Positions 1-15,457 of a stretch of DNA of 15,457 nucleotides are shown in pieces. Positions within the stretch are counted from its first letter, which is position 1; every line of letters starts with the position of its first letter. The position numbers were made by a program, and so were the translations under genes. Source of the stretch: an uncultured archaeon (GTDB lineage Archaea; Iainarchaeota; Iainarchaeia; Iainarchaeales; JAAZKV01); assembly GCA_964551375.1 (NCBI GenBank), contig CAZKBG010000002.1, forward strand, positions 1-15,457. The letters run 5' to 3'. Below the pieces are notes generated by a model. It had not been told where the DNA came from. It saw nothing but the letters and a program-made list of their open reading frames with translations, and did not search any database.

Positions 1-3
1 TCT

Positions 4-76
4 GCCACTGTAGATCAGCAGTTAGATCGCCTGACTCATAATCAGGAGGTCGGCGGTGCGATTCCGCCTAGTGGCA
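4..76 (+). tRNA. tRNA-Met, anticodon CAT (elongator Met, or Ile2-type if C34 is modified)
   Basis: Hand-folded cloverleaf. Acceptor 4-10/69-75 (7 bp, one G.U). D stem 13-16/25-28. Anticodon stem 30-34/42-46 with loop CTCATAA (CAT at 37-39, U33 and A37 present). T stem 52-56/64-68. Discriminator A76. No encoded CCA. It does not start AGCGGG as archaeal initiators do. Confidence 0.85.
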
Positions 77-90
77 TTAATATTTATTAA
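77..90 (+). promoter_or_regulatory. TATA-like box for the 114..710 gene (near-leaderless)
   Basis: TTAATATTTATTAA is centred ~30 nt upstream of ATG 114. No SD lies between them. Confidence 0.3.
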
Positions 91-113
91 CTTCAAAAAC
101 ATACTTTTGGCTG

Positions 114-710: not shown

Positions 711-787
711 TTCAAAAACCTAATTTTCACTACTAGCAAATATTATTATAGCCAGCGAAACTTAACTTTGTTAGATAAGTGAGCTAA

Positions 788-1396
788 ATGCCTGATAGTA
801 TTTATGATAAAGTAAGACTTGCAGTAGGAAAAGTAGTGGATGCAAGCGCGCACTTAAACGCAGCCGCAACTGCTGAAAAAATCGGCAAAACGCTTGGATT
901 AAGCGAAGCAATGATACAATTCACTCACATTGAACTAAGAAACTCTGTTTACGAACCTGAATACAAAAAAATTCCTTACTCTGAAAGAATAGTATTCTTA
1001 CCGCACTGCACAAGAAACAATAAAGTGTGCAAAGCAACAGTGGACGGAGAAGGAATTCACTGCAAGAATTGCGGCGGATGCGCAATTGATGAAGTGACAA
1101 AAATCGCAAAAGAACTCGGATACATGGGAGTATTCACTGCGCACGGCGGAAGCATGGTAAAAAAAATAATTGAAAAATACAAACCAAAAGCAGTTGTCGG
1201 CGTATGCTGTTTTCCTGAAGCATTAATGGGGATAGAAGGAGTAAAAGCACTAGGAAGAATACCCCAAGCGGTTCTGCTTCTTAATGACGGGTGCCAGGAC
1301 ACAGTAATGAATATTCCTTTACTAAGAGAAAAAATGCAGATGATTAATGCAACAGTTCTTGAAGAAAGCAAAAAAACAAAAGCAAAAAGAAAATAG
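788..1396 (+). CDS. DUF116-family Cys-rich protein (probable metal/Fe-S binding, function unknown)
   Basis: 202-aa ORF. It shows the pattern I associate with DUF116: FLPHCTR..C..(x)..HCKNCGGCAI followed by VVGVCCFPEAL. The call comes from motif memory, not a search. Confidence 0.6.
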   Translation: MPDSIYDKVRLAVGKVVDASAHLNAAATAEKIGKTLGLSEAMIQFTHIELRNSVYEPEYKKIPYSERIVFLPHCTRNNKVCKATVDGEGIHCKNCGGCAIDEVTKIAKELGYMGVFTAHGGSMVKKIIEKYKPKAVVGVCCFPEALMGIEGVKALGRIPQAVLLLNDGCQDTVMNIPLLREKMQMINATVLEESKKTKAKRK

Positions 1397-1424
1397 CTCT
1401 TAAAAATTTTAATTAAACTAAATT

Positions 1425-2084
1425 TTAATCAATTAATCTAACAAACCGCTCAATTTCCTCAAAATTCTTTGCTAAAAATAGAGGTCTAAATCTTCTCAAC
1501 TGATTTTCAGTAGAAATGCCGGTGGATTTTGCAATAAATTTAACTCCAAGACGCTGGCACATCAAACCATCCTGAATAGAATCTCCAATAAATACAATTT
1601 CGCTTGGTTTTAATTTTAATTTCTTCAACGCAACAACAAGAGGCTCCACATCGGGCTTTTTATGTTCCACATCATCGCTTGTAATGATAAATTTTAACTG
1701 CGATTTTGTTTTCTTATCAAAAACCGTGTCAACAAAAAGGTGCCTTGAGCCAGTAACTACTCCAAGCGGGAATTTTTTAGACATTTTTGCAATAAACTCT
1801 TTTGAATCCTTAAACCACAAAGACTTTGCTTTATTCTTTTTTAGTAGTTTAACAAAATACTTTCTTCTAAATTCAACAAACTTAGGCAAATCAATTACTT
1901 GTTTAGTTGAATCCATCAAATAATACGCAATATCCCTTGAGTGAAGCAAAGACAAATCCCTCATCTTTTGGGGAGTCACTTTAAAACCAAATTCCTTAAT
2001 CGCAGCGCTATCACTTTGCATAATCAGCGGAACAGAATTAATCAAAGTCCCATCAAGATCAATCAAAATAGCCCTAATTTTCAT
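1425..2084 (-). CDS. HAD-superfamily phosphatase (subfamily IA-like)
   Basis: 219-aa ORF with all four HAD motifs: I = LIDLDGTL (DxDxT), II = VVTGS, III = HKKPD, IV = FIGDSIQD. Confidence 0.85.
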   Translation of the reverse strand: MKIRAILIDLDGTLINSVPLIMQSDSAAIKEFGFKVTPQKMRDLSLLHSRDIAYYLMDSTKQVIDLPKFVEFRRKYFVKLLKKNKAKSLWFKDSKEFIAKMSKKFPLGVVTGSRHLFVDTVFDKKTKSQLKFIITSDDVEHKKPDVEPLVVALKKLKLKPSEIVFIGDSIQDGLMCQRLGVKFIAKSTGISTENQLRRFRPLFLAKNFEEIERFVRLID

Positions 2085-2108
2085 ATCGGAAAGATTAAAC
2101 CACTAACC

Positions 2109-2116
2109 AATATAAA
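2109..2116 (-). promoter_or_regulatory. TATA box for the HAD gene (leaderless)
   Basis: The minus strand reads TTTATATT, centred ~28 nt upstream of ATG at 2084. Confidence 0.35.
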
Positions 2117-2173
2117 CCTAACCAGAAGATGAATTCTATAAGCAAGCCAACTAGCTAAGTTAGTTGAACTATT

Positions 2174-2320
2174 GCCCCGATAGTGCAGTGGTCAAGCACG
2201 TCACCCTCTCACTGCCTTTTCTCTTTTAGGAAAAGAGAAAAGCTAAGTTGCCAAAAGAGAAAAACTTTTGACGACTGCAAGAGTGCGGTGGAGACCCGGG
2301 TCCGAATCCCGGTCGGGGTA
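2174..2320 (+). tRNA. tRNA-Glu, anticodon CTC, interrupted by a 74-nt intron at the canonical 37/38 position
   Basis: Acceptor 2174-2180/2313-2319 (G1.U72 wobble), discriminator A2320. D stem GTGC/GCAC with loop AGTGGTCAA. Anticodon stem TCACC (2201-2205)/GGTGG (2287-2291). 5' half-loop CTCTCA (2206-2211) plus C2286. T stem CCGGG/CCCGG. Mature length is 73 nt. Confidence 0.85.
2212..2285 (+). other. Archaeal tRNA intron with a bulge-helix-bulge splice motif
   Basis: 3-nt bulge TGC (2284-2286). 4-bp helix CTCT (2206-2209)/AGAG (2280-2283). 3-nt bulge CAC (2210-2212). Outer helix TGC (2213-2215)/GCA (2277-2279). Cleavage after the 2nd bulge nucleotide gives exactly the 37/38 junction. Confidence 0.8.
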
Positions 2321-2381
2321 TTAGAGAAAATGGTTGTGTATACTCCCTGTTTCTTAAAGTTAACTCCAATGATACGCACTA

Positions 2382-2390
2382 TTTTATATT
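2382..2390 (+). promoter_or_regulatory. TATA box upstream of the 2421..5478 gene cassette
   Basis: TTTTATATT lies ~35 nt upstream of GTG 2421. A partial SD (AGGT, 2411-2414) lies between them. Confidence 0.3.
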
Positions 2391-2420
2391 TTGCCGTAGT
2401 ATTTTAAGCTAGGTAATATC

Positions 2421-3593
2421 GTGCTTTTTGAGGTTTCAACAGGAAGGAATGAAATTCAAGTCATGGGAAATAATGCAGTGCTTAAAAGAAAAAATGGCGA
2501 AAGCATTCCAATACCATCAACAAGCGCGCTTGCAAAGCTTTACAAGGAACTAGCTGCTAAAAATACGCCTGAAGTGCAAAAAAAGCTAAAGGATTATTCT
2601 GATAAGTTCCCAAAAATAATGGAAGGGGACACAATAATTACAGGCGATAATACAATAGTAATTGTCCGCTCTTCATACAACAAGGGAAAAGACAAACCGA
2701 TTGAAGGAATGAAGCAAACTGCATCAAAATCAATTAATTTTGGCCCTGATTCTGAAATACGATTTTTAGGAGTTAAAAAATGGATCCGAGAGGACAAAAC
2801 CGCTCAGAAAAAATACTTTGGCGAAATGATTGAAACAATAGAAGTAAAAAAAGCAGGTTTCTTTTACTGCTCATACAGCAACTGCGAGGACACTTTAATC
2901 ACCCCAACAGCGCTTGTGGACTTTTTAGGTCTTGGAGGAGGCGTAACATTTGATTATTACAACGGAGCGCTTTATAGCGTTCCATGCCCTTCTGAAGGAA
3001 TTGGCGAAAAAGGAAGCATAAAATTCACAAACAAAAACACCAAAAAATTTTTTACCTCAAAAACAATTGAAGAAGTAATTGTCACAAGCAACGCAATTTA
3101 CAAAAAATCCTTTGCCAAGATGGACCAAATAAACTTTTTCTCCGCAAGCCAAATTGGAATGCTCGCAGTGAAAGATTTTATTCCTGATACAAGCGAAGAC
3201 CAGTACGCGCAAATGGCTAAAACAGGGGACAAAATGATGGAAGTATTTGCAAATATTGAAATGTTTAAGCAAATGGATCCAAAAGATATTATAAAATTGG
3301 CAAAGCAGGGAGGCGCCACACCCGAACAACTAAAAGAATTTGAAGACTTGCCTGAAAAACTTAAAATGATGGAAAAACAAATGCCAATGGATAAAGTAAT
3401 CAACGTTGTAGCACAGCAAAAGGCGTTCTATGAAGGAATGGGCGCGCAGGGATTTGCAAGCATGGCAAAAGTGCAAAAAAAAGCCCAAGTCAAAATGAAC
3501 GAACACTTTGACAAGGAATTCAAAGAATTTGCAAACAAGTCAAAAGAACCAAGAAAATACGGACCATTAACAAACGAATTTAAGGTGGCTTAA
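2421..3593 (+). CDS. Hypothetical cytoplasmic protein 'A': beta-rich N-terminal two-thirds plus a Met/Lys/Glu-rich helical tail. No recognisable family.
   Basis: 390-aa ORF from GTG 2421, with an alternative ATG at 2463 (Met15). No signal peptide or TM segment. No nucleotide-binding or catalytic motif that I recognise. Shares motifs with the next gene (see findings). Confidence 0.7.
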   Translation: MLFEVSTGRNEIQVMGNNAVLKRKNGESIPIPSTSALAKLYKELAAKNTPEVQKKLKDYSDKFPKIMEGDTIITGDNTIVIVRSSYNKGKDKPIEGMKQTASKSINFGPDSEIRFLGVKKWIREDKTAQKKYFGEMIETIEVKKAGFFYCSYSNCEDTLITPTALVDFLGLGGGVTFDYYNGALYSVPCPSEGIGEKGSIKFTNKNTKKFFTSKTIEEVIVTSNAIYKKSFAKMDQINFFSASQIGMLAVKDFIPDTSEDQYAQMAKTGDKMMEVFANIEMFKQMDPKDIIKLAKQGGATPEQLKEFEDLPEKLKMMEKQMPMDKVINVVAQQKAFYEGMGAQGFASMAKVQKKAQVKMNEHFDKEFKEFANKSKEPRKYGPLTNEFKVA

Positions 3594-3595
3594 TT

Positions 3596-5137
3596 ATGGC
3601 TGAAAAGAAAAAAATAAAACAGAAAAACATTGTTCAAAAAACTTCGGTCAAAAAAACGGCAAATAAAGAAGAAACTATTATTGATAAGGATCTTGCTGAA
3701 AAAATGATGAAAGCAAAAGAAGATGCAATGAAAAAGTTTAACTCAGTTGCCATGGGAAACTCAAAAGAAATAGAAGAATCAAGAGAAAAAGGAAAGCAAG
3801 TCGGCGCAATTTATAAGGAACTTGAAGAGTGCAACAAAATTGAGGAAGAATTCAAGACAAATCCTCCCTTAATGACAAGCGTTCATATTAATGGAAAACT
3901 CATTTCACAGGTTTATGATAAAGGAGTTATAGATAAAATTGCAATGCTAAAAAAACACTCGATTTCGTTTACTCCTGCTGTACACCACCAGTCAACTTTT
4001 GGAATAGAGTTTAAGGTGTTTGGCAGGGCTTATGTAAAAAGAAGCGGGCAAAAAATTCCTCTTGAAGAAAGCTTTACAGAAAATACTTTCGTTCTAAAAG
4101 ACGGCGATATTATAGGCACTGAAAATTCATCATACGTTTTTGACTTAAAAGAATACAACGAGACAGACAAAAAAAGCACAAGCATTATCATTTATCCAAA
4201 AAGTGAAATGCGCTTTTCGCTTAATGAAACCGTGACAAACCCAGCGCCCGCATTTATGGACCCTTCCAAAGTGTCAAACGCAATAAAAAGCAAGTCAAAA
4301 TCAACTGTTATTAGCCAAAAACTAACGCAAGTTGAACCATTACAGGGATTATTTTTTATTTCAATAAAAAGAGAAGGAAATGATGTGACCAAAATGCTGA
4401 AATTTGGAGCTTCATATCCAAAAATAAAATTTAAATCAGCTTCGGCAATTTATGCTGGCGTAGTAGGAGACTTAATGGAAAAAATGAAAGCGCAAAACCC
4501 AAAACTCGCGCAAATTTACGAAGCAAAGACAAACATGAGCTCAAATATTAAGGGGGCTGCAAATAGAACTTGCGATGAAATAACAGGATTCTTTGAATTA
4601 TCCGGTGACGGCTCAATAGTTATTACAAGAAGCGGGAATTTAATAGTTCATGAAAGCATCGGCAAAGAAACAAGAAAAGTTCCCACAAACGCGCTCAAGC
4701 CGATAAAAGCAACTTTTACTCATGACGCACTCTATGAAACTGATACTGGAAAGAATCCTGACAATAGAGTTGCCAAAATGGTGGAACAAGCTGCCTCCCT
4801 ATCAATATATGCGGGCGCGATAAATATGAAGAAAAGCATAGAAGAAAGGGGGAAAATAATGGGCAAGGCAAGCTCAACAAAAGATGCAAGCGTCCAAAAA
4901 GAAACCGAAGGAATGCTAAGATACGCGCAGGAAAGCGGGGATAAGGAACTCATTGAAGCTGCGCAGGCACAAATGAAATCAATGCAAAGTTATCTAAACA
5001 GCGGAGGAAGCGCGGCTGAAGAAAATGGAATACTAAAGTCCATAGCAGAATATGAAAAACAAATAAGCGCAGTAAAACCAAAACTATTATCAAGTCTTTC
5101 GCCTTATTCAAGTCCTTCGGGAAGCGACAAAGCTTAA
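3596..5137 (+). CDS. Hypothetical cytoplasmic protein 'B', paralogous to protein A. Has a Lys-rich N-terminus and a Ser/Pro tail.
   Basis: 513-aa ORF. SD AAGGTGG (3582-3588) lies inside the 3' end of the upstream gene, and its stop is 2 nt before ATG 3596, which suggests translational coupling. No TM segment or signal peptide. Confidence 0.75.
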   Translation: MAEKKKIKQKNIVQKTSVKKTANKEETIIDKDLAEKMMKAKEDAMKKFNSVAMGNSKEIEESREKGKQVGAIYKELEECNKIEEEFKTNPPLMTSVHINGKLISQVYDKGVIDKIAMLKKHSISFTPAVHHQSTFGIEFKVFGRAYVKRSGQKIPLEESFTENTFVLKDGDIIGTENSSYVFDLKEYNETDKKSTSIIIYPKSEMRFSLNETVTNPAPAFMDPSKVSNAIKSKSKSTVISQKLTQVEPLQGLFFISIKREGNDVTKMLKFGASYPKIKFKSASAIYAGVVGDLMEKMKAQNPKLAQIYEAKTNMSSNIKGAANRTCDEITGFFELSGDGSIVITRSGNLIVHESIGKETRKVPTNALKPIKATFTHDALYETDTGKNPDNRVAKMVEQAASLSIYAGAINMKKSIEERGKIMGKASSTKDASVQKETEGMLRYAQESGDKELIEAAQAQMKSMQSYLNSGGSAAEENGILKSIAEYEKQISAVKPKLLSSLSPYSSPSGSDKA

Positions 5138-5175
5138 GAATTTAAAAGTTATAATTAATGCACGGAGGTGCAATT

Positions 5176-5478
5176 ATGGGAATAATGGATGATGCTTTAG
5201 GAAATATTGTTAATCGAACAAAAGACTCTCTTTCCTACAAAGCAGGCGATTTAATTACTGGCGCTGCTGTTAAAGGAGCAGGAAAAATTGCCAATAAAGC
5301 AACAGGTGCAAAAAGCGCCGTGCTTGATAAATGCCCAAAATGCAAGACAAAACTCCAGCCGGATGCAAAGTTCTGTCCTTCATGCGGACAAGCATTAGTA
5401 GTAACATGCCCTAAATGCAATGTTGCATACCAGTTAGGAACAAAGTTTTGCACACAATGCGGCGGAAAATTAGCATAA
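5176..5478 (+). CDS. Double zinc-ribbon protein (DZR-like)
   Basis: Two CxxC-x(10-12)-CxxC ribbons: CPKCKTKLQPDAKFCPSCG and CPKCNVAYQLGTKFCTQCG. The ORF opens at 5158, but a strong SD (GGAGGTG, 5163-5169) sits 6 nt before ATG 5176, so 5176 is the likelier start. Confidence 0.75.
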   Translation: MGIMDDALGNIVNRTKDSLSYKAGDLITGAAVKGAGKIANKATGAKSAVLDKCPKCKTKLQPDAKFCPSCGQALVVTCPKCNVAYQLGTKFCTQCGGKLA

Positions 5479-5588
5479 CAAAATTGCTTTTGACTGCCCT
5501 GTTGTGCAGATATTATACTGCATGTAATTGTTGCTTCAATTTAGTTGAAAATATGCTTCTAATTGGATTCAAAAGCCGAAATACTTTG

Positions 5589-5597
5589 TTTTATATA
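5589..5597 (+). promoter_or_regulatory. TATA box for the pilin-like/giant-protein gene pair (leaderless transcript)
   Basis: TTTTATATA is centred ~26 nt upstream of ATG 5619 with no SD between them. It lies in a 140-nt intergenic gap. Confidence 0.45.
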
Positions 5598-5618
5598 TTT
5601 CCAAGTTATTAACTTAAT

Positions 5619-6302
5619 ATGCAAAAAACTGGTTTTAGGGCGCGAGAGAAAGAGTTGGTTGCCCAAGGGACAATCGAGTATCTTGTTATTATTGCGGTTG
5701 TTATAGTTTTGGCGTTGGTTGCTTCTTATTTTATGTTTGCTTCTATGGGTTCTGCTTCTCAGGCTGATAAGGCTTCTTTGAAGGCTGCTTGGCAGTCTAA
5801 GGAAGTGGGGATTGCTGATTTTGCGGTTAATGAGGATGGGAATGGGCAGATTGCGATTATGAATAATTCTTCAGGGCTTGCGAGGATAAAAAAAGTTTAT
5901 ATTAATGGGGTTTTGACTTATGATGGGACTTTGCCGCTTTCGCAGTTTGATAGGTATACTATTGGTTCGTTTGCGAGTGCGGTTGCTTCGTGTAGTTCTA
6001 ATGTAAGGTATAGGATAAGAATTATTTATGAGTCTGAGTCGGGTCTTGAGCAGATTGTTGAGGGGGATTTGTATGCGGAGTGTATTCCGAATTTTTTGGT
6101 GAGTGGTTTCTTTTCTTTGGGCGCGGGGGTTGATTTTAATTCTGGTGCTTCAGATAATGTTGCTCTTCAAGATGGGAATTATGCCTTAGTGGATACTAAT
6201 TTGTTTAATTCGGTTGTTCTTGATAATATTTCTGATTTGAGTGTTGTTGATTCTAATACGAGTCATGTTGGTGGGCAAGTAATTTTAGGGCAGGCGAGCT
6301 AA
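5619..6302 (+). CDS. Archaeal type IV pilin-like protein with a class III (prepilin-type) signal peptide
   Basis: 227-aa ORF. The charged N-terminus MQKTGFRAREKELV is followed by AQGTIEYLVIIAVVIVLALVASYF (5661-5730). This matches the class III / DUF361-type motif (A/G)Q(G/A)xxEYL plus a hydrophobic helix. The remainder is beta-rich. Confidence 0.75.
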   Translation: MQKTGFRAREKELVAQGTIEYLVIIAVVIVLALVASYFMFASMGSASQADKASLKAAWQSKEVGIADFAVNEDGNGQIAIMNNSSGLARIKKVYINGVLTYDGTLPLSQFDRYTIGSFASAVASCSSNVRYRIRIIYESESGLEQIVEGDLYAECIPNFLVSGFFSLGAGVDFNSGASDNVALQDGNYALVDTNLFNSVVLDNISDLSVVDSNTSHVGGQVILGQAS

Positions 6303-6303
6303 A

Positions 6304-9300
6304 ATGAAAATGAAGACTGCTTATTGGGTTGTTACAATATTTTTTATTTTAATTTCTTTATCGGTTGCATTTGCTTATAATTGTCCTGGTGGAGATGGAA
6401 GCAGTGACTTAAATATTTCCACAAACACTACTTGGGCTAGCGCGACTGATTATAATTGCAATAATGTTTTCATAACAAATGGCTCCATGTTGACTTTTAA
6501 CTCAAGAACTGCGGGCTCAAAAATAACTCTTTACGCAGCAAGTCTTACAATTGATGAAAACTCAAAAATATCTTCTGATGATTACGGCTCGTTAAACGGA
6601 GCTGGTTCTGGTGCGGGCGGAGCAGCATATGCTGGAGGGGGAGGAGCAGGATATGGTGGAGCTGGAGGCGCTGGTTCTGGGGCTGGAGGAGCCGCTTTTG
6701 GTGTAAGTGATATGAATCAGCCTACTTCTTTTGGTTCAGGGGGAGGAACAAGCACAAACTATAGCTCAAGAGGAGGATACGGCGGCGGAGCAATCAGACT
6801 AATAGTTAGCGGAACAATTACAAATAATGGAATTATTTCAAGCAACGGCGGAATGGGTGCTGGATCCGGAGGATATGTTGGCGGCTCGGGTTCCGGAGGA
6901 AGCGTTTGGATTGATGCAAATATATTAACAGGAATCGGGCGAATTGACGCAAACGGCGGACCAAGGGCAAGCGGTTCAGCAGGCGGAGGGGGAGGAGGAA
7001 GAATAGCAATTTATGTTCAAAACAACTCTTCACTTCCTGCAATAAATGTATTTGGAAGCAGCGGTTCTGGAAGCAACGGCTCAATATTCCTTTCAGCAAA
7101 CAATTCTGATTTTAATGTTCCAAGTCTAAATACAGGCGACTTGAATGTTTTTAGAGTAAAAAACTTTTACAGTTTAATAACTTCAGGAAGCAATTATAGA
7201 TTTGTTGTTGTAAATTTAAGCGGAGACTTTAACGGCTCTGTTTCTGCAGGGCTTCAATCTGACACAAATATTTCGGGAGCAAATATTTATCCTGACAACA
7301 TAACAAGCGGGAAAATAAAAATTGTTTCAACAAACCTCAATCTTGCAAGCGGGAAAAATATTTCAGCAAACGGACTCGGTAATTTGAATGCTGCGGGTGC
7401 CGGAGCTGGCGGAGCAGGATATTGGGGGGCTGGAGGAGCAGGATATGGAGGGGCAGGAAGCGGAGGCTCAAGCGGTGCTGGCGGGGCTTCATTTGGTTTA
7501 AGCGATATGAACCAGCCGACTGCGCTTGGCTCTGGTGGAGGAACAAGCACAAATTACACCACTCCTGGAGGTTATGGAGGGGGAGCTATTAGATTAATTA
7601 TAAACGGGACTCTTACAAATGAAGGAATAATTTCAAGCAATGGAACTCCTGGCTCTGGCTCAGGCAGCGCGGTTGGAGGAAGCGGTTCTGGAGGAAGTAT
7701 TTGGATTGATGCAAATGTTTTAACAGGAACTGGAAGAATTGACGCAAACGGCGGAATGGGAGTAACTAGCGCAGCAGGGGCAGGGGGAGGAGGGCGAATT
7801 GCAGTTTATGTTTTAAGAAATTCTTTTATTTCATCAATAAACACTATGGGGGGTTCTGGCAGCGGAACAGGAAGCCGAGGGTCTGTTTTTATTTCATCAT
7901 TAGGGTATGACTTCAACATTCCTAATGTATATGCTGGAGATGTAAATGTAACTGGAGTTCGCAATTTTTATAGCAGTATTTCATCGAGCGGAAACAGCAG
8001 GTTTGTTGTTTTTAATTTAATCGGAGATTTTAATGGCTCAATAACATCAGGCCTTCAATCAGATGTAAACATTACAGGAGTAAATATTAATCCAAGCACA
8101 ATTATTGGGGGAAGAATAAGAATCACCGCAACAAGCCTTACACTTTCAAGCGGAAATACAATTTCAGCTAATGCCCTTGGCTCAATAAATAGCGCAGGAA
8201 CTGGAGCTGGCGGAGCAGCATATAACGGGGGCGGGGGTGGAGGTTATGGTGGAGCTGGCGGAGCGGGCTCGGGAAGCACTGGCGGAATAGCTTATGGCTC
8301 AATGTCACAGCCAACTGATTTAGGCTCTGGCGGGGGATTAAGTACTAATTATGGTAATATTGGCGGATACGGCGGAGGAGCAATAAGAATTATTTTAAGC
8401 GGAGCTTTGGCAAATGATGGAATAATTTCAAGCAACGGCGGGACAGGAACAAGCAGTTCTTCTTATGCAGGCGGAAGCGGTTCTGGGGGAAGTATTTGGA
8501 TTGATGCGGGTTCTCTTTTAGGAACAGGGCGAATTGATGCAAATGGAGGAGTGCTCGCAACAGGCTGGTCTGGCGGAGGAGCTGGAGGAAGAATAGCGCT
8601 TTATGTAACCGGGGCATCAACAATGGGGGCAATTAATACAACCGCAAGCGGTTCAGGAAGCAACGGCACAGTATATATCTCATCAACAGGATCTGATTTT
8701 AATGTTCCAACAATAATAACAGGAGACACAAACTTTTTAGGAATCAGAAACTTTTTTGGGACAATAACCTCAAGCGGAAGCTCAAGGTTTAATCTAATAA
8801 CAATAAACGGGGATTTTAATGGTTCAATAACAGCAGGGCTTCAATCAGATGTTAATATCACAGGCGGGAACTTGTACCCTGACACTATTATTGGAGGAAA
8901 AGTAAAACTTGTTGCAACAAATATTAGTATCGCAAGCGGAAAATTAGTTTCAACAAATGCGCTTGGAAATGTTAATTCAGCAGGAGCTGGAGCTGGCGGA
9001 GCAGCATATAATGGCGGAGGGGGAGGGGGATACGGTGGAGCTGGCGGAGCGGGCTCCGGAAGCGCTGGCGGAGCAGTGTATGGCGCAAGCGATGCAAATC
9101 AGCCGACCGCACTTGGCTCTGGCGGTGGATTAAGCACAAATTATGGCAACATAGGGGGTTATGGTGGCGGGGCAATTAGAATAATTGCAAGCGGAACATT
9201 TTCTAATAATGGAATTATATCTTCAAACGGCGGACTTGGCACAAGTAATTCTTCTTATGCTGGAGGAAGCGGTTCTGGAGGAAGCATTTGGATAACAACA

Positions 9301-10092
9301 AATAAGTTTAACGGCGCAGGAAGAATTGATGCAAACGGCGCTCCAGGAATAACCGGCTGGGCAGGGTGCGGAGGAGGAGGAAGAATTGCAATCTGGTATG
9401 ATACAAATACATTTAGCGGAAATATTATTGCTTCAGCTGGATGCGGAGGAGGAGGCGCGGGGTCAAGGAACTGGGTTTATAGTTATGCGGGACCAAATTA
9501 CATTTTAAGCGGGAGTTTTACTTCAAAGAAAATTAATTTAGCTTATGGAAAAGATTTTAATGTTCTTAATTTTGATGTGAATTTGCCAAGCGGAACAAAT
9601 GTTTCGTTTAAGTTAAGGACTGCCTCAAACAGCAGTGATTTGGATAATTCTCCTTGGCTTGGTCCAAGCGGAACAACTGCAAGCGATGATAATTACTCAA
9701 CAAGTGGAACAGCAATTTCTGGAGTTCATGACGGTAATTCTTGGGTTCAGTGGAAAGCATTCTTATCAACTGCAAGCGCTACTTCAACTCCCATAGTTTT
9801 TGATGTTAATATTATGGTTAGAAATAAGGTTGATTCGAATGCGGTGTTTGTTTTGGAAAAGGGGGTTCAGTATAATTGGTTGAGTTTAGTGCCAACTCAA
9901 GCGCTTAATGGCGGGACAATTAATTGGTATTATTGTTTGACTCAAAATTGCGCGTCTTGGATATTGCTTGGGCCAAGCGGGGGTTCAATTGGCCAGACAA
10001 ATCAAAATCTTTATTTACTTGCAACAATGCACCCTGATGAAAATAACAATTCCCCACAAATAAGCGAAGTGCTTGTGCACTATTCAAAATAA
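6304..10092 (+). CDS. Giant secreted glycine-rich tandem-module surface protein (putative beta-helical adhesin), without a C-terminal anchor
   Basis: 1262-aa ORF. Sec-type signal peptide MKMKTAYWVVTIFFILISLSVAFA|Y. Four ~265-aa modules, then a ~200-aa non-Gly-rich C-terminal region. No TM segment or sorting signal at the C-terminus (...EVLVHYSK*). ATG 6304 is 1 nt after the pilin-like gene's stop. Confidence 0.85.
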   Translation: MKMKTAYWVVTIFFILISLSVAFAYNCPGGDGSSDLNISTNTTWASATDYNCNNVFITNGSMLTFNSRTAGSKITLYAASLTIDENSKISSDDYGSLNGAGSGAGGAAYAGGGGAGYGGAGGAGSGAGGAAFGVSDMNQPTSFGSGGGTSTNYSSRGGYGGGAIRLIVSGTITNNGIISSNGGMGAGSGGYVGGSGSGGSVWIDANILTGIGRIDANGGPRASGSAGGGGGGRIAIYVQNNSSLPAINVFGSSGSGSNGSIFLSANNSDFNVPSLNTGDLNVFRVKNFYSLITSGSNYRFVVVNLSGDFNGSVSAGLQSDTNISGANIYPDNITSGKIKIVSTNLNLASGKNISANGLGNLNAAGAGAGGAGYWGAGGAGYGGAGSGGSSGAGGASFGLSDMNQPTALGSGGGTSTNYTTPGGYGGGAIRLIINGTLTNEGIISSNGTPGSGSGSAVGGSGSGGSIWIDANVLTGTGRIDANGGMGVTSAAGAGGGGRIAVYVLRNSFISSINTMGGSGSGTGSRGSVFISSLGYDFNIPNVYAGDVNVTGVRNFYSSISSSGNSRFVVFNLIGDFNGSITSGLQSDVNITGVNINPSTIIGGRIRITATSLTLSSGNTISANALGSINSAGTGAGGAAYNGGGGGGYGGAGGAGSGSTGGIAYGSMSQPTDLGSGGGLSTNYGNIGGYGGGAIRIILSGALANDGIISSNGGTGTSSSSYAGGSGSGGSIWIDAGSLLGTGRIDANGGVLATGWSGGGAGGRIALYVTGASTMGAINTTASGSGSNGTVYISSTGSDFNVPTIITGDTNFLGIRNFFGTITSSGSSRFNLITINGDFNGSITAGLQSDVNITGGNLYPDTIIGGKVKLVATNISIASGKLVSTNALGNVNSAGAGAGGAAYNGGGGGGYGGAGGAGSGSAGGAVYGASDANQPTALGSGGGLSTNYGNIGGYGGGAIRIIASGTFSNNGIISSNGGLGTSNSSYAGGSGSGGSIWITTNKFNGAGRIDANGAPGITGWAGCGGGGRIAIWYDTNTFSGNIIASAGCGGGGAGSRNWVYSYAGPNYILSGSFTSKKINLAYGKDFNVLNFDVNLPSGTNVSFKLRTASNSSDLDNSPWLGPSGTTASDDNYSTSGTAISGVHDGNSWVQWKAFLSTASATSTPIVFDVNIMVRNKVDSNAVFVLEKGVQYNWLSLVPTQALNGGTINWYYCLTQNCASWILLGPSGGSIGQTNQNLYLLATMHPDENNNSPQISEVLVHYSK
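6520..9486 (+). repeat. Four in-frame tandem coding modules (6520-7311, 7312-8112, 8113-8898, 8899-~9486; the last is truncated)
   Basis: Module starts KITLYAASLTI, KIKIVSTNLNL, RIRITATSLTL and KVKLVATNISI lie 792, 801 and 786 nt apart. GGYGGGAIR, GGSGSGGS(V/I)WI and GRIDANG each occur once per module (4 times). GDFNGS..GLQSD occurs in modules 1-3. Confidence 0.9.
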
Positions 10093-10150
10093 ATTTAAAA
10101 ATTAATTATTAACTTACTAAGATAGAATTATTTAGGATAAATTTTTTAGT

Positions 10151-11728
10151 TTAAGTTCTTCTTGGCAACTCTTCAATAGCTCCATCAACTACTTTTAGTA
10201 TTCGTTGAGCGATTTTGTCAATGAAATATCTATCATGAGAAACAGCAACAATTGCTCCCTCGTAACTTAAAAACGCTTTTTCAATAATTTCACACGCATC
10301 AAGATCAAGATGGTTTGTAGGCTCGTCAAGGAGCAGAATATTTGGCTTTGTGAGAAGAACTTTCAATAAATTAAGCCTTGATTTTTCGCCAAAAGATAAA
10401 TTTGAAATTGATTTGCTAACTTCTTCATTAGTAATAAATCCAACCATTGACAAACTCTGTCTTGTTTTTGCCTTATCCTTAAGCATTGCAAAAATCTCAT
10501 CATAAAGAGTGGAATGCGCGGTTAAATCCTTTAATTCTTGATCAACATACCCTAATTTTCCCTGCTGGTCAAGAATTGCTTTTCCGCCAAGCGGAGGAAC
10601 TCTTCCCTCAATAGTTTTGAAAAGAGTGCTTTTGCCGATTCCATTCTCGCCGATTATTATAATTCTCTGCCCAACGCAAACGTTAAGATTAATATGTGAA
10701 ATCAGCGGCTTTTTGTAGCCAACTGTCAAGTCATTAAGCTCAAGAACCATGTGCGATTTTATCGGAGATGCCTCAAAAGGAGTTTCAAAATCCGACTGGT
10801 CAAGGTCAGGCTTTTCAATAACTTCTCTTTTCTCAAGAAGCTTAACCCTGTACTTCATCTGCTTAACTTTTTTCGGACTCGTTCCAATTCTTGCAATCTT
10901 GTCTTTTTGCTTCTCTAAATAATCCTGCTCATTTTCATACGCTGTCTGCTGCGCAGCAAAATTAGCTTCCCTGATTTTTAAATAAGTGGAGTAATTTCCG
11001 TTATACTTAGTCAATTTTCCGCTTTCTATTTTTATAATCGAGCTGCAAATCTGATTCAAGAAATATCTGTCGTGAGTAACCATGAGAACAGTTCCCTTGA
11101 AGGATTTTAAATAATCTTCAAGAATTTCAAGTCTCTTAAAATCCAAATGATTTGTTGGCTCATCAAGAAGCAAAAAATCCGCGTCTGAAGACAAAATCTG
11201 CGCAAGCGCAATTATTGCCCTCTGCCCTGTTGAAAGCGAGCCAACTTTTTTGTCAAGCCACTCATCAGTAACATCAAGAGTTTTTAAAACAGATTTAATT
11301 TTATTTGTGGGGGTAGTGTCATTGTGCTTCGCAAGCTCTGTTTGAAGCGCTACATACTTCTCAGTCAATTTATTCAATCTGTCATGATCTTCATAAACTT
11401 CAGGCAAAAGAAGGAGTTTTTCAATTTCCTGCATTTCCTTTTCAAATTTATTTTGATGATGAATTGTGGCTCTTTGAGCGATTACTTCCCATCCTGTTTT
11501 ATTCAAATCAATATCAATATTTTGGGAAAAATAAGCCGCTTTGCCGTTAAAATTAATGTGCCCGTGATAATCAACCATTCCCAAAATCGCTTTTAAGAGA
11601 GTAGTTTTTCCAACACCGTTTCTTCCAATAAGCCCAACTTTTGCGCCGTCCTCAATTCCAAAGCTTTCATCAAGGAGAATCTCCTGCTTTCCAATAGTAA
11701 TTCCAAGGTTCTTAACAGTCAGAGCCAT
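10151..11728 (-). CDS. ABC-F family ATPase (two ABC domains, no TM domain; EttA/YbiT-like translation-factor type)
   Basis: Walker A GRNGVGKTT and GENGIGKST. Signatures LSTGQ and LSFGE. LLLDEPTNHLD occurs twice. A charged ~80-aa interdomain linker is present (YLKIREANFAAQQTAYENEQDYLEKQKDKIARI...). The track ORF starts at TTG 11734, but ATG 11728 (MALTVKNL) is the likelier start. Confidence 0.85.
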   Translation of the reverse strand: MALTVKNLGITIGKQEILLDESFGIEDGAKVGLIGRNGVGKTTLLKAILGMVDYHGHINFNGKAAYFSQNIDIDLNKTGWEVIAQRATIHHQNKFEKEMQEIEKLLLLPEVYEDHDRLNKLTEKYVALQTELAKHNDTTPTNKIKSVLKTLDVTDEWLDKKVGSLSTGQRAIIALAQILSSDADFLLLDEPTNHLDFKRLEILEDYLKSFKGTVLMVTHDRYFLNQICSSIIKIESGKLTKYNGNYSTYLKIREANFAAQQTAYENEQDYLEKQKDKIARIGTSPKKVKQMKYRVKLLEKREVIEKPDLDQSDFETPFEASPIKSHMVLELNDLTVGYKKPLISHINLNVCVGQRIIIIGENGIGKSTLFKTIEGRVPPLGGKAILDQQGKLGYVDQELKDLTAHSTLYDEIFAMLKDKAKTRQSLSMVGFITNEEVSKSISNLSFGEKSRLNLLKVLLTKPNILLLDEPTNHLDLDACEIIEKAFLSYEGAIVAVSHDRYFIDKIAQRILKVVDGAIEELPRRT

Positions 11729-11780
11729 ACACAATTAACAATTAGGCAAATTCTTAAATGATGCTAAAGAAAGGGGGTTT

Positions 11781-12266
11781 TTATAAAATATTGCAGGCTT
11801 TAGCCCCTTTTTTCTTCAAATACTTCTGATGATACTCTTCAGCAGGGTAAAATTCGCTTGCTTTTCTAAGCTCTGTGACAATTTTTCTTGACTGGTGAAT
11901 CTTTAACGCGCCGTACTTTTTAATAAAATCCTCCGCTGACTTTTTTTGCTCCTGATTGTGATAAAAAATAATTGACTTGTACTGAGTTCCAATATCAGGG
12001 CCCTGCCTGTCAAGCGAAGTGGGGTTATGCATTTTAAAAAATTTGTCAAGAAGCTTATCATAATCAATTATTTTTGGGTCGAACTCGAGCTGAACAACTT
12101 CAACATGCTCTGTTTCTCCAGTGCAGACTTCTTCATAAGTAGGATTTTTAGTATTTCCTCCTTCATAGCCAACTTTTGTTAAAACAACACCTTTTGTTTT
12201 CATAAACTCATCTTCAACATGCCAAAAGCACCCTGCTCCAAAAGTCGCTAATTGATTTTTGTTCAT
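11781..12266 (-). CDS. msrA: Peptide-methionine (S)-S-oxide reductase
   Basis: 161-aa ORF with the catalytic GAGCFWHVE (GCFW) motif and the conserved GY.GG......YE.V..G.T.H.E.V core. SD GGTGA lies just upstream. Confidence 0.9.
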   Translation of the reverse strand: MNKNQLATFGAGCFWHVEDEFMKTKGVVLTKVGYEGGNTKNPTYEEVCTGETEHVEVVQLEFDPKIIDYDKLLDKFFKMHNPTSLDRQGPDIGTQYKSIIFYHNQEQKKSAEDFIKKYGALKIHQSRKIVTELRKASEFYPAEEYHQKYLKKKGAKACNIL

Positions 12267-12299
12267 AAATTCACCAAAAAATATTTAGATTATGTAATT

Positions 12300-12635
12300 C
12301 TACTTCAGCTCTTCTTTAAAATCAAGCGCGCAAGAGTTTAAACAGAAGCGCTTTTTTGTTTCTGTCGGGCCGTCATCAAAAACATGCCCTAAGTGAGAGC
12401 CGCATTTTGCGCAAATTATTTCAGTTCGAGTCATGAACAAGTCTTTGTCAGTTTTAAGCTTTAATGCCCTATCATTTATGGGGCGGTCAAAACTCGGCCA
12501 GCCCGTTCCTGACTCAAATTTGGCTTCTGAAGAGAATAATTTATTCCCGCACGCAGCGCAGCGATAAATGCCGTCCTTTTTATTAAATAATAATTTTCCA
12601 GTAAAAGGAAGCTCAGTGCCCTTCTTTCTAAGCAC
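12300..12635 (-). CDS. msrB: Peptide-methionine (R)-S-oxide reductase. The conserved N-terminus is displaced into another frame (12636-12703).
   Basis: Two Zn-binding CxxC pairs (CAACG, CAKCG), GTGWPSF, HLGHVFDDGP, and catalytic RFCLNS. The ORF as tracked begins at GTG 12635. An ATG-initiated N-terminus (MNSKKLPKNEEEWANTL) lies upstream in a different frame. Confidence 0.85.
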   Translation of the reverse strand: MLRKKGTELPFTGKLLFNKKDGIYRCAACGNKLFSSEAKFESGTGWPSFDRPINDRALKLKTDKDLFMTRTEIICAKCGSHLGHVFDDGPTETKKRFCLNSCALDFKEELK

Positions 12636-12820
12636 TTTATACTGCTCTTGGGTAAGGTATTAGCCCATTCTTCCTCATTTTTAGGCAGTTTTTTTGAGTT
12701 CATAAGCGGAAATTGTGATTAGTAGTTAGTTTAAATTTAACTTTGAAATTAAGGCACTTATTTATATTACATGATTAGATTTGGATATATTAAAGGTTAG
12801 TTTTTTTAAAGGTGAACTAA

Positions 12821-13390
12821 ATGGACGCAGTATTAATCGGAGTTTCGGATAGGAGCCTTCTTTGGCGCGCTGGGCAAATCAAAGAAATTGATTATAAAAA
12901 ATTTGTAAATGATTATGCAAAATTCTTTGCGGAAAACTTTGAAAATGTGATTGTGACTCCTGACGACGGGGTGTATACTGACATTGCAATTGAATTTGGG
13001 AAATTAAAAGGAAAAAAACCAATTGCATACTATCCTGATAAAGACACTTATTATGGGACAAGCCATATTGAGAAAAATTATCCTAATTATGACTTGCGCA
13101 AAATTGACGGTGACTGGTATAAACTCAACGCAGACCTCACAAAGCAGGCTCTGTGCGTTGTATGCCTTGGAATTTCGCCAGGAGTTTTAATAGAAGCGTC
13201 ATACATCAAGTACCACCAATCATACGGCGCGTACAAAAATCCAAAACTAAAAAATATTCACTTATTTTTCGACAAAAGAACAGCAAAAAACGATTTGCCT
13301 CAAGGATTTGTTGAGCAGATAAAAAATTTTTATTATTTTGATAATGTTAATGAACTAAAAAAACTGATTGGAAAAATAAATTTATTTTAA
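12821..13390 (+). CDS. Hypothetical protein, possibly a degenerate LOG/TIGR00725-like Rossmann-fold protein
   Basis: 189-aa ORF with SD AGGTGA 5 nt upstream. Its layout resembles TIGR00725/LOG proteins: VLIGVS..., NVIVTPDDGVYTDIAIEFGKLKGKKPIAYYP, CVVCLGISPGVLIEAS. However, the glycine motifs (TGGGxG, GGxGT) are replaced. The similarity was judged by eye only. Confidence 0.3.
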   Translation: MDAVLIGVSDRSLLWRAGQIKEIDYKKFVNDYAKFFAENFENVIVTPDDGVYTDIAIEFGKLKGKKPIAYYPDKDTYYGTSHIEKNYPNYDLRKIDGDWYKLNADLTKQALCVVCLGISPGVLIEASYIKYHQSYGAYKNPKLKNIHLFFDKRTAKNDLPQGFVEQIKNFYYFDNVNELKKLIGKINLF

Positions 13391-13402
13391 TTCTACTTTA
13401 TT

Positions 13403-13456
13403 TGTGAATAAATTTGAACATTGTGAACTGTGAATTTTCATAGTTCATTTTTCACA
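13403..13456 (+). promoter_or_regulatory. Cluster of TGTGAA / TTCACA motifs upstream of the TATA box (candidate transcription-factor operator)
   Basis: TGTGAA at 13403-13408, 13422-13427 and 13429-13434. Inverted TTCACA at 13451-13456. TGAAC at 13415-13419 and 13424-13428, with inverted GTTCA at 13443-13447. Confidence 0.3.
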
Positions 13457-13462
13457 ATTCCT

Positions 13463-13469
13463 TTATATG
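13463..13469 (+). promoter_or_regulatory. TATA box for the 13554 surface-protein gene
   Basis: TTTATAT lies ~88 nt upstream of ATG 13554. SD GAGGT (13542-13546) lies 7 nt before the ATG, which implies a leadered mRNA. Confidence 0.4.
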
Positions 13470-13553
13470 CTTTTCGGTAGTAATCTATTCAGTTATTCGT
13501 TTTTTGGTGTTTAGCAAACACTAATTGATGGGCTGACATGAGAGGTAATCTTG

Positions 13554-15457
13554 ATGGGTTATAGTTTGGGTAAAAAAGTTGTTAATGTATTTTTGATTTT
13601 ATTTTTAGTCATGTTTTTAGTTGGCGCTGCAAGCGCTGCGCACTCACAAACAACAACAATTACACCTGAATCGTCTGTAGCCTCTGTTTCAACTTTATTT
13701 AATGCAGCTGTTGCCATTGACGGGGCAAATTCAGTGGATTATGTGCGAATTGTGATTCCTACAAACGGTGCTGGTTATAGCGCATTAACTTGCGGAGCAG
13801 CTCCTGCTAATTGGAGTCTTGCTTCAAGTGACGCAACAACTTGTGTTTATACAACTTCTTCCGCTCCAATAACTCCGGGGAATCACTTGGATTTTTCTTT
13901 AACTGCAACTACTGCTGGGGATACTGGAACTTACACTTGGGCAGTGAGAACAACAGATAGTGCTGCCGCAATAGTTAATACAAGCCCAACAACAGCTGTT
14001 GATGGGGATGCTCCAACTGCTGGAATAGAGTATTCAAAAAATGCTGGTGTTGATTACTACTCAACAATCAAAGTAAAAGACGCTGATACATTGTTAATTA
14101 AAGCAACTTTTAACGAGCCAATGGCTGATTCACCAGTTGTTAAAATAGCAGTTGATAATGATGTTTTAGTTGCTACTGCAATGACAAAAGTCAGCTCAAC
14201 AGTTTACACTTATTCGTTAAATGTCCCTGCGGGGAATGTTAATACTGCAACAGTTTCCCTTAGTGTTGGGACTGACATTGCGGGCAATGTTATTACATCT
14301 GCACCAACAAGCGGAGCAACATTTACTATTGACAATTTACCGCCTACAACACCAACTTCAGTTCATATTACTTCAAGTAACGCAAATCCGACTTTAGCAA
14401 AAGTAGGAGATACTGTTACAATTACAGCAACTGTTGATTCAGGAACTACAGTAACTGGAACAATTGGCGGAAAAGCAACAACTACTAATGTTGTAAGCGA
14501 TACAACTGCCACTCTTACTCGAATCTTAGATGGTTCTGAAACTGAAGGCGCTGGACTTAATTTTACATTGGTTTCTACTGATGCTGCAGGAAATGATGCA
14601 ACTACAGTAACCAAAGCAGACATATTGGATGCCTCTGCTGTTCAAACAGATTTTACTGCTCCCTCATTTAATGCTGAAAATGGTGTTGCTGCTGGTCCGG
14701 TTAAAACTGATGTTATAAAGGTTATAATTACTGACGCTGCTGGGGGATATTTTGGTTTTAGTGCGAATGCTACTTGTGATGGTAGTGATACTATAAATCA
14801 GGAGTTTACATCTGAAGTTGAGTTTAATGTTGTTGGTGATCATACTGATTATTTGTGTGTGAAAGCTACTGATGCAGCAGGAAATATAGGTTACGAAACT
14901 GTTGGGCAGTTGAATACAGATAATACGCCGCCTACTGTTGAGTTAACTCAAGCTCATGCGGATTTAATTGTTAAAGATGCTGATGCTGATGTTACAATAA
15001 CTGCGACATTTAATGAGAATATGGCTGATACACCAACTATTTCAATTGATGGTCCTGGTGAATGCGATATTACTAGTCAAGCAATGAGTGGTTCTAATAA
15101 AGTTTGGACTTATGCTTGGAATGTTCCTGCTTTGTGTGATGGGGATGCAACAGTAACAGTTTCAGGAACAGATGTTGCAACAAATGCATATGCTGGGGCA
15201 ACAAATTTAGTTTTCACAATTGATAATACAGCTCCGTCATTCACTGATACTGATGATGTTGCTGCTGGTCCAGTTAAAACTGATATTATAAGGGTTACAA
15301 TTACTGGCGCTTCTGGGGGATATTTTGGTTTTAGTACAAACGCTACTTGTGATGGTGACGATACAATAGATCAACCATTTGGATCTACAGTTCCTTTTGA
15401 TGTTGCTGGTGATCACACTGATTATTTGTGTGTGAAAGCTACTGATGCAGCAGGAAA
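13554..15457 (+). CDS. Large secreted surface protein with Ig-like (SbsA/Big_5-like) domain repeats; S-layer or adhesin candidate; 3'-truncated by the window end
   Basis: My own translation is open from ATG 13554 to the window end (634 codons). This ORF is absent from the supplied track because it has no stop. Signal peptide MGYSLGKKVVNVFLILFLVMFLVGAASA|AH. Thr/Ala/Val/Asp-rich beta domains carry recurrent ...ATFNE(P/N)MAD.P..., TD(A/I/V)AGN and FTIDN..P motifs. Confidence 0.8.
   Translation, partial: MGYSLGKKVVNVFLILFLVMFLVGAASAAHSQTTTITPESSVASVSTLFNAAVAIDGANSVDYVRIVIPTNGAGYSALTCGAAPANWSLASSDATTCVYTTSSAPITPGNHLDFSLTATTAGDTGTYTWAVRTTDSAAAIVNTSPTTAVDGDAPTAGIEYSKNAGVDYYSTIKVKDADTLLIKATFNEPMADSPVVKIAVDNDVLVATAMTKVSSTVYTYSLNVPAGNVNTATVSLSVGTDIAGNVITSAPTSGATFTIDNLPPTTPTSVHITSSNANPTLAKVGDTVTITATVDSGTTVTGTIGGKATTTNVVSDTTATLTRILDGSETEGAGLNFTLVSTDAAGNDATTVTKADILDASAVQTDFTAPSFNAENGVAAGPVKTDVIKVIITDAAGGYFGFSANATCDGSDTINQEFTSEVEFNVVGDHTDYLCVKATDAAGNIGYETVGQLNTDNTPPTVELTQAHADLIVKDADADVTITATFNENMADTPTISIDGPGECDITSQAMSGSNKVWTYAWNVPALCDGDATVTVSGTDVATNAYAGATNLVFTIDNTAPSFTDTDDVAAGPVKTDIIRVTITGASGGYFGFSTNATCDGDDTIDQPFGSTVPFDVAGDHTDYLCVKATDAAG
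14685..15457 (+). repeat. In-frame 573-nt (191-aa) period duplication inside the surface-protein gene
   Basis: 14685-14884 aligns without gaps to 15258-15457 at roughly 85% identity by eye. The final 41 nt are identical (actgattatttgtgtgtgaaagctactgatgcagcaggaaa). The intervening Big_5-like domain (14930-15240) also resembles 13995-14340 at the protein level. Confidence 0.85.

Follow-up and report, generated by a model that had tools for sequence, protein, structure and literature searches.

Surface repeats that fold as beta-solenoids are an already known class, and bundles of polyglycine-II (PGII; also polyproline-II, PPII) helices, a second described system of relevance here, are reported to tolerate grafting onto other domains (bioRxiv 10.1101/2023.11.25.568672; PMC13243192). 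We analyzed a 15,457-nucleotide (nt) stretch of DNA from an uncultured archaeon of the Iainarchaeales (GenBank assembly GCA_964551375.1, contig CAZKBG010000002.1, positions 1 to 15,457; referred to as the window), in which a single gene encodes a protein with four tandem glycine-rich modules. We propose, with a probability of roughly 0.55, that these modules serve as the shaft of a surface fibre or adhesin that is secreted and non-enzymatic; secretion, rod-like assembly of the array and an adhesive or structural role are the parts that we infer. The proposal is favored because a module is modelled confidently as a solenoid, because the residues conserved from rung to rung are non-catalytic and because homologs carry extracellular partner domains. 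The presence of the adhesins tapirin, VacA p55, FHA, IcsA and SRRP among weak matches in the Protein Data Bank (PDB) argues in the same direction.

The whole repeat array is confined to one open reading frame (ORF). A previous inspection of the DNA sequence, without database searches (the sequence-only reading), had placed four modules of about 265 amino acids (aa) each at nt 6520-9486, and this span corresponds exactly to aa 73-1061 of the protein, with the motifs recovered in order. The parts of the gene are as follows.

6304..10092, + strand: coding sequence of the predicted secreted repeat protein, 1,262 aa, with the stop codon TAA at 10090-10092; ORF read from the sequence
6304..6375, + strand: predicted Sec-type signal peptide, aa 1-24 (MKMKTAYWVVTIFFILISLSVAFA), read from the sequence with an inferred cleavage site
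6376..6519, + strand: N-terminal cap, aa 25-72 (48 aa), containing Cys27 and Cys52 and predicted in the array model to have short beta strands
6520..7311, + strand: module 1, aa 73-336 (264 aa), conserved core plus lineage-specific linker
6589..6705, + strand: Gly/Ala/aromatic tract of module 1, aa 96-134
7312..8112, + strand: module 2, aa 337-603 (267 aa), the module chosen for structure prediction
7384..7500, + strand: Gly/Ala/aromatic tract of module 2, aa 361-399; model confidence ~95, two isolated bridges only by DSSP
8113..8898, + strand: module 3, aa 604-865 (262 aa)
8179..8295, + strand: Gly/Ala/aromatic tract of module 3, aa 626-664
8899..9486, + strand: module 4, aa 866-1061 (196 aa), core only, without the GDFNGS linker tail
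8971..9084, + strand: Gly/Ala/aromatic tract of module 4, aa 890-927
6608-6668, 7405-7458 and 9022-9074: 24-nt tandem units within the Gly tracts
9487..10089, + strand: C-terminal non-repeat domain, 201 aa; the same domain ends a GLUG-repeat protein (locus L082) and occurs in the protein fragment P0257

An identical protein that begins at the second Met is present in the public protein collection (P0001). The signal MKMKTAYWVVTIFFILISLSVAFA at the N-terminus of the repeat protein is hydrophobic and of the Sec type. Four motifs define the register of the modules, namely (N/S)QPT at aa 138/403/668/932, GGYGGGAIR at aa 157/422/687/951, GGSGSGGS at aa 193/458/723/987 and RIDANG at aa 213/478/743/1007, and their positions give a module period of 265/265/264 aa. 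GDFNGS, the last of eight elements that the sequence-only reading had described in a fixed order, was found only three times (aa 307/574/836), indicating that module 4 is truncated and lacks this element.

A single module was modelled with AlphaFold2 (model m4a5445f24a90; module 2 with its flanks, aa 318-632) from an alignment of 38 sequences (A1) that comprised module 2, its three sister modules and 34 bacterial instances. The prediction is a beta-solenoid with a mean pLDDT (predicted local distance difference test) of 90.9 and a pTM (predicted template modelling score) of 0.90. From GGGAIRL on, the model consists of regular rungs, each running from a long strand through a turn into a short strand and closing with a Gly arc (AIRLIINGTLTN/GIISS, SIWIDANVL/GRI, RIAVYV/SF/SIN, SVFISS and so on), and the linker together with the lead-in of the next module is all-beta at pLDDT 78-90. 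The same rung grammar occurs three times in the consensus of the family, with I-S-A-N/D-G-G turns and GGGSGGS or GGGGGGG arcs, which makes an enlarged first arc the best description of the Gly/Ala tract. In 813 aligned instances this arc carries conserved GPGAG, GGGG(H/Y)GG, YGS, P and GSGGG. The Gly subdomain of ~70 residues (model residues 38-110) reaches a pLDDT of ~95, and DSSP assigns to it four isolated bridges and one 3-residue turn. The earlier suggestion that the modules are stacks of beta-helix rungs is thus in agreement with the predicted fold and with the weak Foldseek matches in the PDB, nearly all of which are beta-helices or solenoids. That the Gly tracts are something other than disordered linkers is likewise borne out, both by their predicted order and by the persistence of the tract motifs across the aligned instances.

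Foldseek comparison of the single-module model with the PDB gave no match at E<=1e-3; the best E-value was 0.11, with query TM-scores (TMq) of at most 0.33. The weak matches included tapirin, Cthe_2159, VacA p55, SufD, MpAFP, FHA, IcsA, SRRP and pectate lyase, and all weak matches were beta-helix, beta-roll or solenoid proteins apart from a leucine-rich repeat solenoid, a betaglycan domain and a putative lipid-binding protein. Stacked rungs as in the parallel beta-helix (pectate-lyase-like/PbH1) superfamily are present in the prediction, and similarity to this superfamily in sequence or structure was not found; no Pfam model of the Beta_helix, NosD or PbH1 type matched the window protein. The best structural matches came from predicted viral structures (BFVD), with E-values of 8e-6 to 2e-3 and TMq 0.32-0.41. 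They are prasinovirus, pandoravirus and orpheovirus proteins, some of them named 'collagen-like' and others uncharacterised; for the models A0A6H1QWC9, S4VX73 and A0A7S6NY19 the E-values span 8e-6 to 3.5e-4, at 18-23% identity. The top match is the Ostreococcus mediterraneus virus 2 protein A0A6H1QWC9 (E 8e-6, TMq 0.41), and a Bathycoccus virus PA14 protein is a further one. These viral matches, which compare predicted models only, may stem from Gly composition.

The module family is covered by none of the curated collections searched (Pfam, NCBIfam, PDB sequences). Scans of Pfam and NCBIfam returned nothing over the module, whether the query was the whole protein, a single module, the C-terminal domain or any of four bacterial homologs (Pfam thresholds E<=1 for the whole protein and E<=10 for module 2); the sole Pfam match of the C-terminal 202 aa was a chance KH_BICC1. 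PDB sequences gave nothing relevant at E<=10, either with the protein in phmmer or with the module profile. The module thus lacks an end-to-end match to any characterised domain family in these collections, as the sequence-only reading had supposed. A search of the full-text literature found no description of the Gly-rich module, and a helix described in a preprint on giant genes of Omnitrophota differs from it in being antiparallel. The module, its Gly subdomain and the family therefore appear to be undescribed in the libraries and literature searched.

Relatives are nevertheless abundant. A word-indexed search of 5.8 billion proteins found at least 932 of them, with E-values down to 1e-169, most being ~2,000 aa long and from Verrucomicrobiota and Planctomycetota; their names are 'hypothetical' or 'beta strand repeat-containing', or derive from a terminal domain that is unrelated. 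An exhaustive search with the module profile over 1.84 billion cluster representatives retrieved 15,108 proteins at E<=1e-3, of which 10,311 reach E<=1e-10 and 5,410 reach E<=1e-30, with up to 12 modules and up to 6,562 aa; the window protein itself was recovered in 4 stretches (E 2.3e-228). Scanning with a module hidden Markov model (HMM), as had been suggested, gave mainly seven-module proteins of Verrucomicrobiota and Planctomycetota, joined by members from the candidate phyla radiation (CPR) and DPANN archaea. Among the top 120 proteins, 77 have seven modules, 25 have six and 11 have eight, and homologs overall carry 4-12. The window modules score 297-436 bits against this HMM, and bacterial instances 44-122 bits each. 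In species genomes the module occurs in bacteria (phyla of the Planctomycetes-Verrucomicrobia-Chlamydiae (PVC) group, Desulfobacterota, Myxococcota, Bdellovibrio and Anaerolineae), in CPR (Saccharibacteria, Paceibacteria and Shapirobacteria) and in archaea (Aenigmatarchaeota, Woesearchaeota, Nanohaloarchaea, Iainarchaeum, 'Nanobdellati' and a Methanosarcinales ORF of >4,374 aa). It is overwhelmingly bacterial, at odds with the archaeal specificity that the sequence-only reading had implied. A species-genome scan with the single window protein as query found no close relative, and neither tblastn with module 2 against GenBank phages and PLSDB plasmids nor the module profile against IMG/VR found any module relatives. 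Two complete genomes of cultured Bdellovibrio sp., HCB209 and HCB185ZH (L012, L042), match the rung part only (query residues ~111-224, 39-51% identity) and could offer an experimentally tractable entry to the family.

The consensus of the 813 instances reads ..I.ADG.G(Y/F)..G.GPGAG..GGGG(H/Y)GG.GG..GG..YGS...P..GSGGG..GG.GGGAIRL..G.L..DG.ISANG..GGGSGGSIW....L.G.G.ISANGG.G..GGGGGGRIAIY...N.F.G...A.GG.G..GGAGTIY. It describes a conserved core of ~190 aa, and a variable, lineage-specific linker of about 75-80 aa lies between cores. The window protein combines the ordered motifs with a tandem array (4 modules) in a large, putatively secreted protein, as do other members. Conserved residues are Gly, Asn, Ala and aliphatics that repeat rung by rung, one Arg is nearly invariant, and judged from the alignment the conserved positions would not form a catalytic constellation. 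The terminal domains of homologs are of extracellular types (dockerin, Ig, CarboxypepD_reg, Big_5, DUF11, TSP3).

The four modules of the window share 59-66% identity at the aa level and 62-66% at the nt level. Their best core identity to an outside module is 52%, and since they are closer to each other than to outside modules (median 40-42%), the four copies arose within the lineage of the window. A separate archaeal clade of modules was considered and rejected, with median core identities of 40% to archaeal modules and 42% to the remaining modules outside archaea and CPR. Between modules, the Nei-Gojobori method (NG86) gave nonsynonymous divergence (dN) of 0.28-0.38, synonymous divergence (dS) of 1.05-1.47, near saturation, and dN/dS (omega) of ~0.2-0.35. 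With dN/dS at ~0.25 and dS above 1, the copies are old duplicates under purifying selection, which upholds the earlier view of the array as old and selected instead of a product of recent slippage. The proposed pairing of modules 1/2 and 3/4 received slight support: informative sites favor it by 8 versus 3 and 2 for the alternatives, and the paired modules are 0.656 and 0.661 identical versus 0.59-0.645 for other pairs.

Taken as a mechanism, the favored proposal would work as follows. In each ~190-aa core, long and short beta strands would stack as solenoid rungs closed by glycine arcs of the GGGSGGS or GGGGGG type, with the I-S-A-N/D-G-G turn recurring. The Gly arcs would permit tight, side-chain-free closure of wide rungs, and the first arc of every module would be enlarged into a ~70-residue subdomain nearly free of side chains that includes the QPT and GSGGG motifs. 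Conserved aromatic residues may pin this subdomain, and aromatics together with Asn turns may pin the stack. A lineage-specific linker of ~75 aa would join successive cores. The protein would be exported via its Sec signal and made together with a pilin-like protein encoded next to it, and specific binding or anchoring would more likely reside in the 200-aa terminal domain and perhaps also in the pilin-like partner.

The prediction makes the Gly/Ala/aromatic tract an ordered segment without alpha or beta structure, which fits PGII-type packing or irregular arcs. The main rival to the favored proposal is the model of the sequence-only reading, in which the tract of an otherwise beta-helical module might form a PGII (PPII) lattice serving as a functional face, here for a ligand, ice or a partner. 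We regard this as structurally plausible yet unlikely, if well short of far-fetched. In all four modules the tract is 47-51% Gly and predicted to be ordered (pLDDT ~95), with no helix and isolated bridges only by DSSP, and the tolerance of PPII bundles to grafting would suit such an arrangement. Successive aromatics of a tract are first 8 residues apart and then 15-16; the underlying register is an octapeptide, and Ser fills the position that is skipped. This register, G-x-x-G-x-x-aromatic-x, would bring Gly, Gly and the aromatic residue to the same side of a helix with three residues per turn. However, it also fits a two-residue beta periodicity (G1, G3, A5, Y7), and Ala, at 17-29% of each tract, is too bulky for the inside of a hexagonal PGII lattice. 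Foldseek lists no PGII protein among its PDB matches at E<=10, nor is there a sequence or profile match to PDB chains or to Pfam, glycine-rich models included. A hybrid fold, in which a beta-solenoid contains an aromatic-pinned PGII-type lattice part and is repeated 4-12 times per chain in >15,000 protein clusters (PVC bacteria, CPR, DPANN, other archaea and possibly giant viruses), is a tentative interpretation of the model; if true, no other natural family of PGII-containing domains would come near it in size. Catalysis by the modules, as beta-helix enzymes akin to pectate lyases or glycoside hydrolases with polysaccharide or cell wall as substrate, is improbable. A polysaccharide-lyase-like protein, pectate lyase and a tailspike are among the weak Foldseek matches, and some homologs carry carbohydrate-related or dockerin domains, yet all of these matches have E>=0.1 and TM<=0.33, and Pfam and NCBIfam gave no match to an enzyme family. 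In addition, an invariant acidic/basic cluster is absent, the invariant columns of the 38-sequence alignment being Gly except for one Pro, one Ser and one Ala, and it would be unusual for a single chain to hold seven to twelve identical active sites.

Two further explanations deserve very little credence. One, suggested by the 'Pmp-like' GGAI motifs of the sequence-only reading, makes the protein a chlamydial Pmp or autotransporter passenger; it can point to one GGAI per module and to the predicted beta-helix. The 1,262 aa hold GGA[ILV] five times and FxxN six times (aa 23, 56, 966, 1037, 1090 and 1166), and FxxN occupies no conserved module position. Pfam gave no autotransporter or Chlam_PMP match at E<=10, a C-terminal beta-barrel is absent and the archaeal host has no outer membrane, so that membership in Pmp (PF02415) is refuted. 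The other holds that the Gly tracts are disordered low-complexity spacers made by slippage and that the modules are structurally meaningless. The strongly biased composition would be in line with this, as would the repeats found at the DNA level: Tandem Repeats Finder reported 24-nt units (2.2-2.5 copies, 79-86% matches) in three of the four Gly tracts, which correspond to the octapeptide G-x-G-G-x-x-(Y/S/F)-x with aromatics every 8 or 16 residues. No long-period DNA repeat was found in the array by the same program, and the divergence between modules (dS >1, dN/dS ~0.25), the tract motifs kept in 813 instances from many phyla and the tract pLDDT of ~95 all contradict slippage. Three other identities were rejected from the window protein itself: the RTX beta-roll signature GG.G.D occurs 0 times; G..G..G..G, as expected of a collagen-like protein, matches at just 14 positions, which overlap and fall into five short clusters, and no uninterrupted in-frame run exceeds five Gly (382-394); and there is no Glug match (PF07581).

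Several observations weigh against a surface-fibre shaft. For the function of the module family, no named homolog or solved structure lends support, and a specific activity, instead of scaffolding, could underlie the strong conservation that the Gly subdomain shows in every module. The repeat protein sequence has no C-terminal membrane segment or recognised cell-wall anchor that would attach it to the cell. Neighboring genes were not conserved across 78 related loci, and in seven other archaeal loci no pilin-like gene lies beside the module gene. A rigid, continuous rod is likewise not borne out by a model of the array (aa 25-1075 with 40 full-length bacterial homologs, modules aligned in register). 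Here the four cores were confident, in blocks mostly at pLDDT 80-95, while the overall pTM was 0.44 and the window-specific linkers fell below pLDDT 50. A continuous rigid rod is plausible from the single-module model, and the array model is no demonstration of it. Of the structures whose prediction had been suggested, the single module is a confident beta-solenoid and the array is confident in its cores only.

The gene directly upstream bears on how the surface-fibre shaft might be deployed, and the loci concerned are these.

5619..6302, + strand: pilin-like gene; its 227-aa product carries a class III (archaeal pilin-type) signal peptide by Pfam
L081, 8889-12681: pilin-like gene plus GLUG-repeat gene
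L082, 1-2123: pilin-like gene plus GLUG-repeat gene

The repeat gene begins two bases after the last base of the pilin-like gene's stop codon, and the class III signal scored E 1.2e-3 in the window protein and E 1.3e-6 in a 58%-identical homolog. Next to homologs of the pilin-like gene, a large gene follows directly in three other contigs and precedes directly in a fourth. Where DNA exists, these large genes encode GLUG-motif repeat proteins, not members of the Gly-rich family (Glug model PF07581, E 5e-14 for the L081 protein and E 6e-12 for the L082 protein). The L082 protein nevertheless ends in the ~200-aa C-terminal domain of the window protein (28% identity, E 4e-14), and the fragment P0257 carries it at 43% identity. 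Because the pilin-like gene is kept beside differing large repeat genes and the C-terminal domain is common to the L082 protein, the repeat array behaves as an exchangeable scaffold: as judged from these sequences, the conserved unit is a pilin-like gene beside a large secreted repeat protein, with a middle array that can be replaced.

A longer contig of the same locus (L079) carries Rpb7, Spt4, S24e, S27e and Kae1 upstream, which identifies the genome as archaeal. Within the window, a tRNA-Met (CAT) lies at the left edge (3-77), followed by a 198-aa ORF (114-710) whose N-terminus resembles that of a lipoprotein (LIALFFGCSS) and for which there is no family match. Two adjoining Lys/Glu-rich ORFs of 390 and 513 aa (2421-3593 and 3596-5137, + strand), for which Pfam and NCBIfam gave no significant match, precede a double-zinc-ribbon protein (5158-5478) and then the pilin-like gene on one strand, and this gene order is repeated on two independent Logan contigs (L079 and L080). 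Directly downstream of the repeat gene, 10151-12635 on the - strand encodes a putative ABC-F type ATPase (527 aa) and then two ORFs that by eye resemble MsrA (161 aa) and MsrB (111 aa); with such housekeeping genes next to it, the repeat gene sits in an ordinary chromosomal context with no obvious mobile element. Further on, at 13554-15455 (+ strand), lies the gene of another secreted protein, with the signal MGYSLGKKVVNVFLILFLVMFLVGAASA; it runs past the window end, and the protein comprises at least 634 aa. It has Thr/Ala/Val-rich repeats of ~190 aa, with NATCDG(S/D)DTI at aa 405 and 596 and a recurring YLCVKATDAAG, shows no Pfam match and probably belongs to the cell surface as well.

Should the model hold, thousands of giant surface proteins in Verrucomicrobiota, Planctomycetota, CPR and DPANN are dominated by a domain of ~190-265 aa that has neither a Pfam or NCBIfam entry nor a solved relative, and its definition would bring annotation to a large amount of environmental-genome sequence now called 'hypothetical'. 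Structural work could then take a single module as a tractable target, with a Gly-lattice/solenoid architecture that is possibly new. The pilin-linked surface cassette with swappable repeat shafts would, in small episymbiotic archaea, be a candidate for host attachment. The interest of the family lies in its unannotated size and in the possible Gly-lattice architecture; it bears on no long-standing question.

Compared with known systems, the module is structurally closest among the matches found to giant-virus and prasinovirus proteins that are 'collagen-like' or uncharacterised and are themselves known as predicted models alone. With the GLUG-motif proteins (PF07581) it shares the slot beside a homologous pilin-like gene and, in L082, the C-terminal domain, whereas their VGGLxG repeat units are unrelated to the repeat of the window. 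The RTX beta-roll with its GGxGxDxUx nonapeptides resembles the tracts in having a short Gly-rich unit (8 residues here) with one hydrophobic or aromatic position, and the two-unit spacing (16) recalls a two-repeat rung; unlike RTX proteins, the window protein has no Ca2+-binding Asp, a period of 8 instead of 9 and about four units per module. Chlamydial Pmps (PF02415) likewise have the GGAI tetrapeptide in a predicted beta-helix surface protein, but they combine many GGA(I/L/V) and FxxN repeats with an autotransporter barrel, while each module has GGAI once. PGII/PPII bundles, as in the ALK/LTK glycine-rich domain, phage S16 gp38, the snow-flea antifreeze protein and Obg, and as predicted for PE_PGRS, share runs of ~50% Gly with single larger residues; the predicted order of the module tract without alpha or beta structure is compatible with such bundles and also with irregular arcs, its PPII geometry being hypothetical. 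In contrast to these bundles, the tract sits in a solenoid, is repeated 4-12 times, is higher in Ala and has no sequence, profile or Foldseek match to them. The beta-solenoid adhesins (tapirin C-terminal domain 6n2c, VacA p55 2qv3, FHA 1rwr, IcsA 5ke1 and SRRP 5nxk) differ in that the best match has E 0.11 and TM <=0.33, that there is no sequence or profile relationship and that the all-Gly rung closures and the 70-residue Gly/Ala subdomain of the module have no counterpart in them. What the module would share with these adhesins are stacked rungs of parallel strands, a recurrent Asn-containing turn, an extracellular location and a place in the long shafts of surface proteins.

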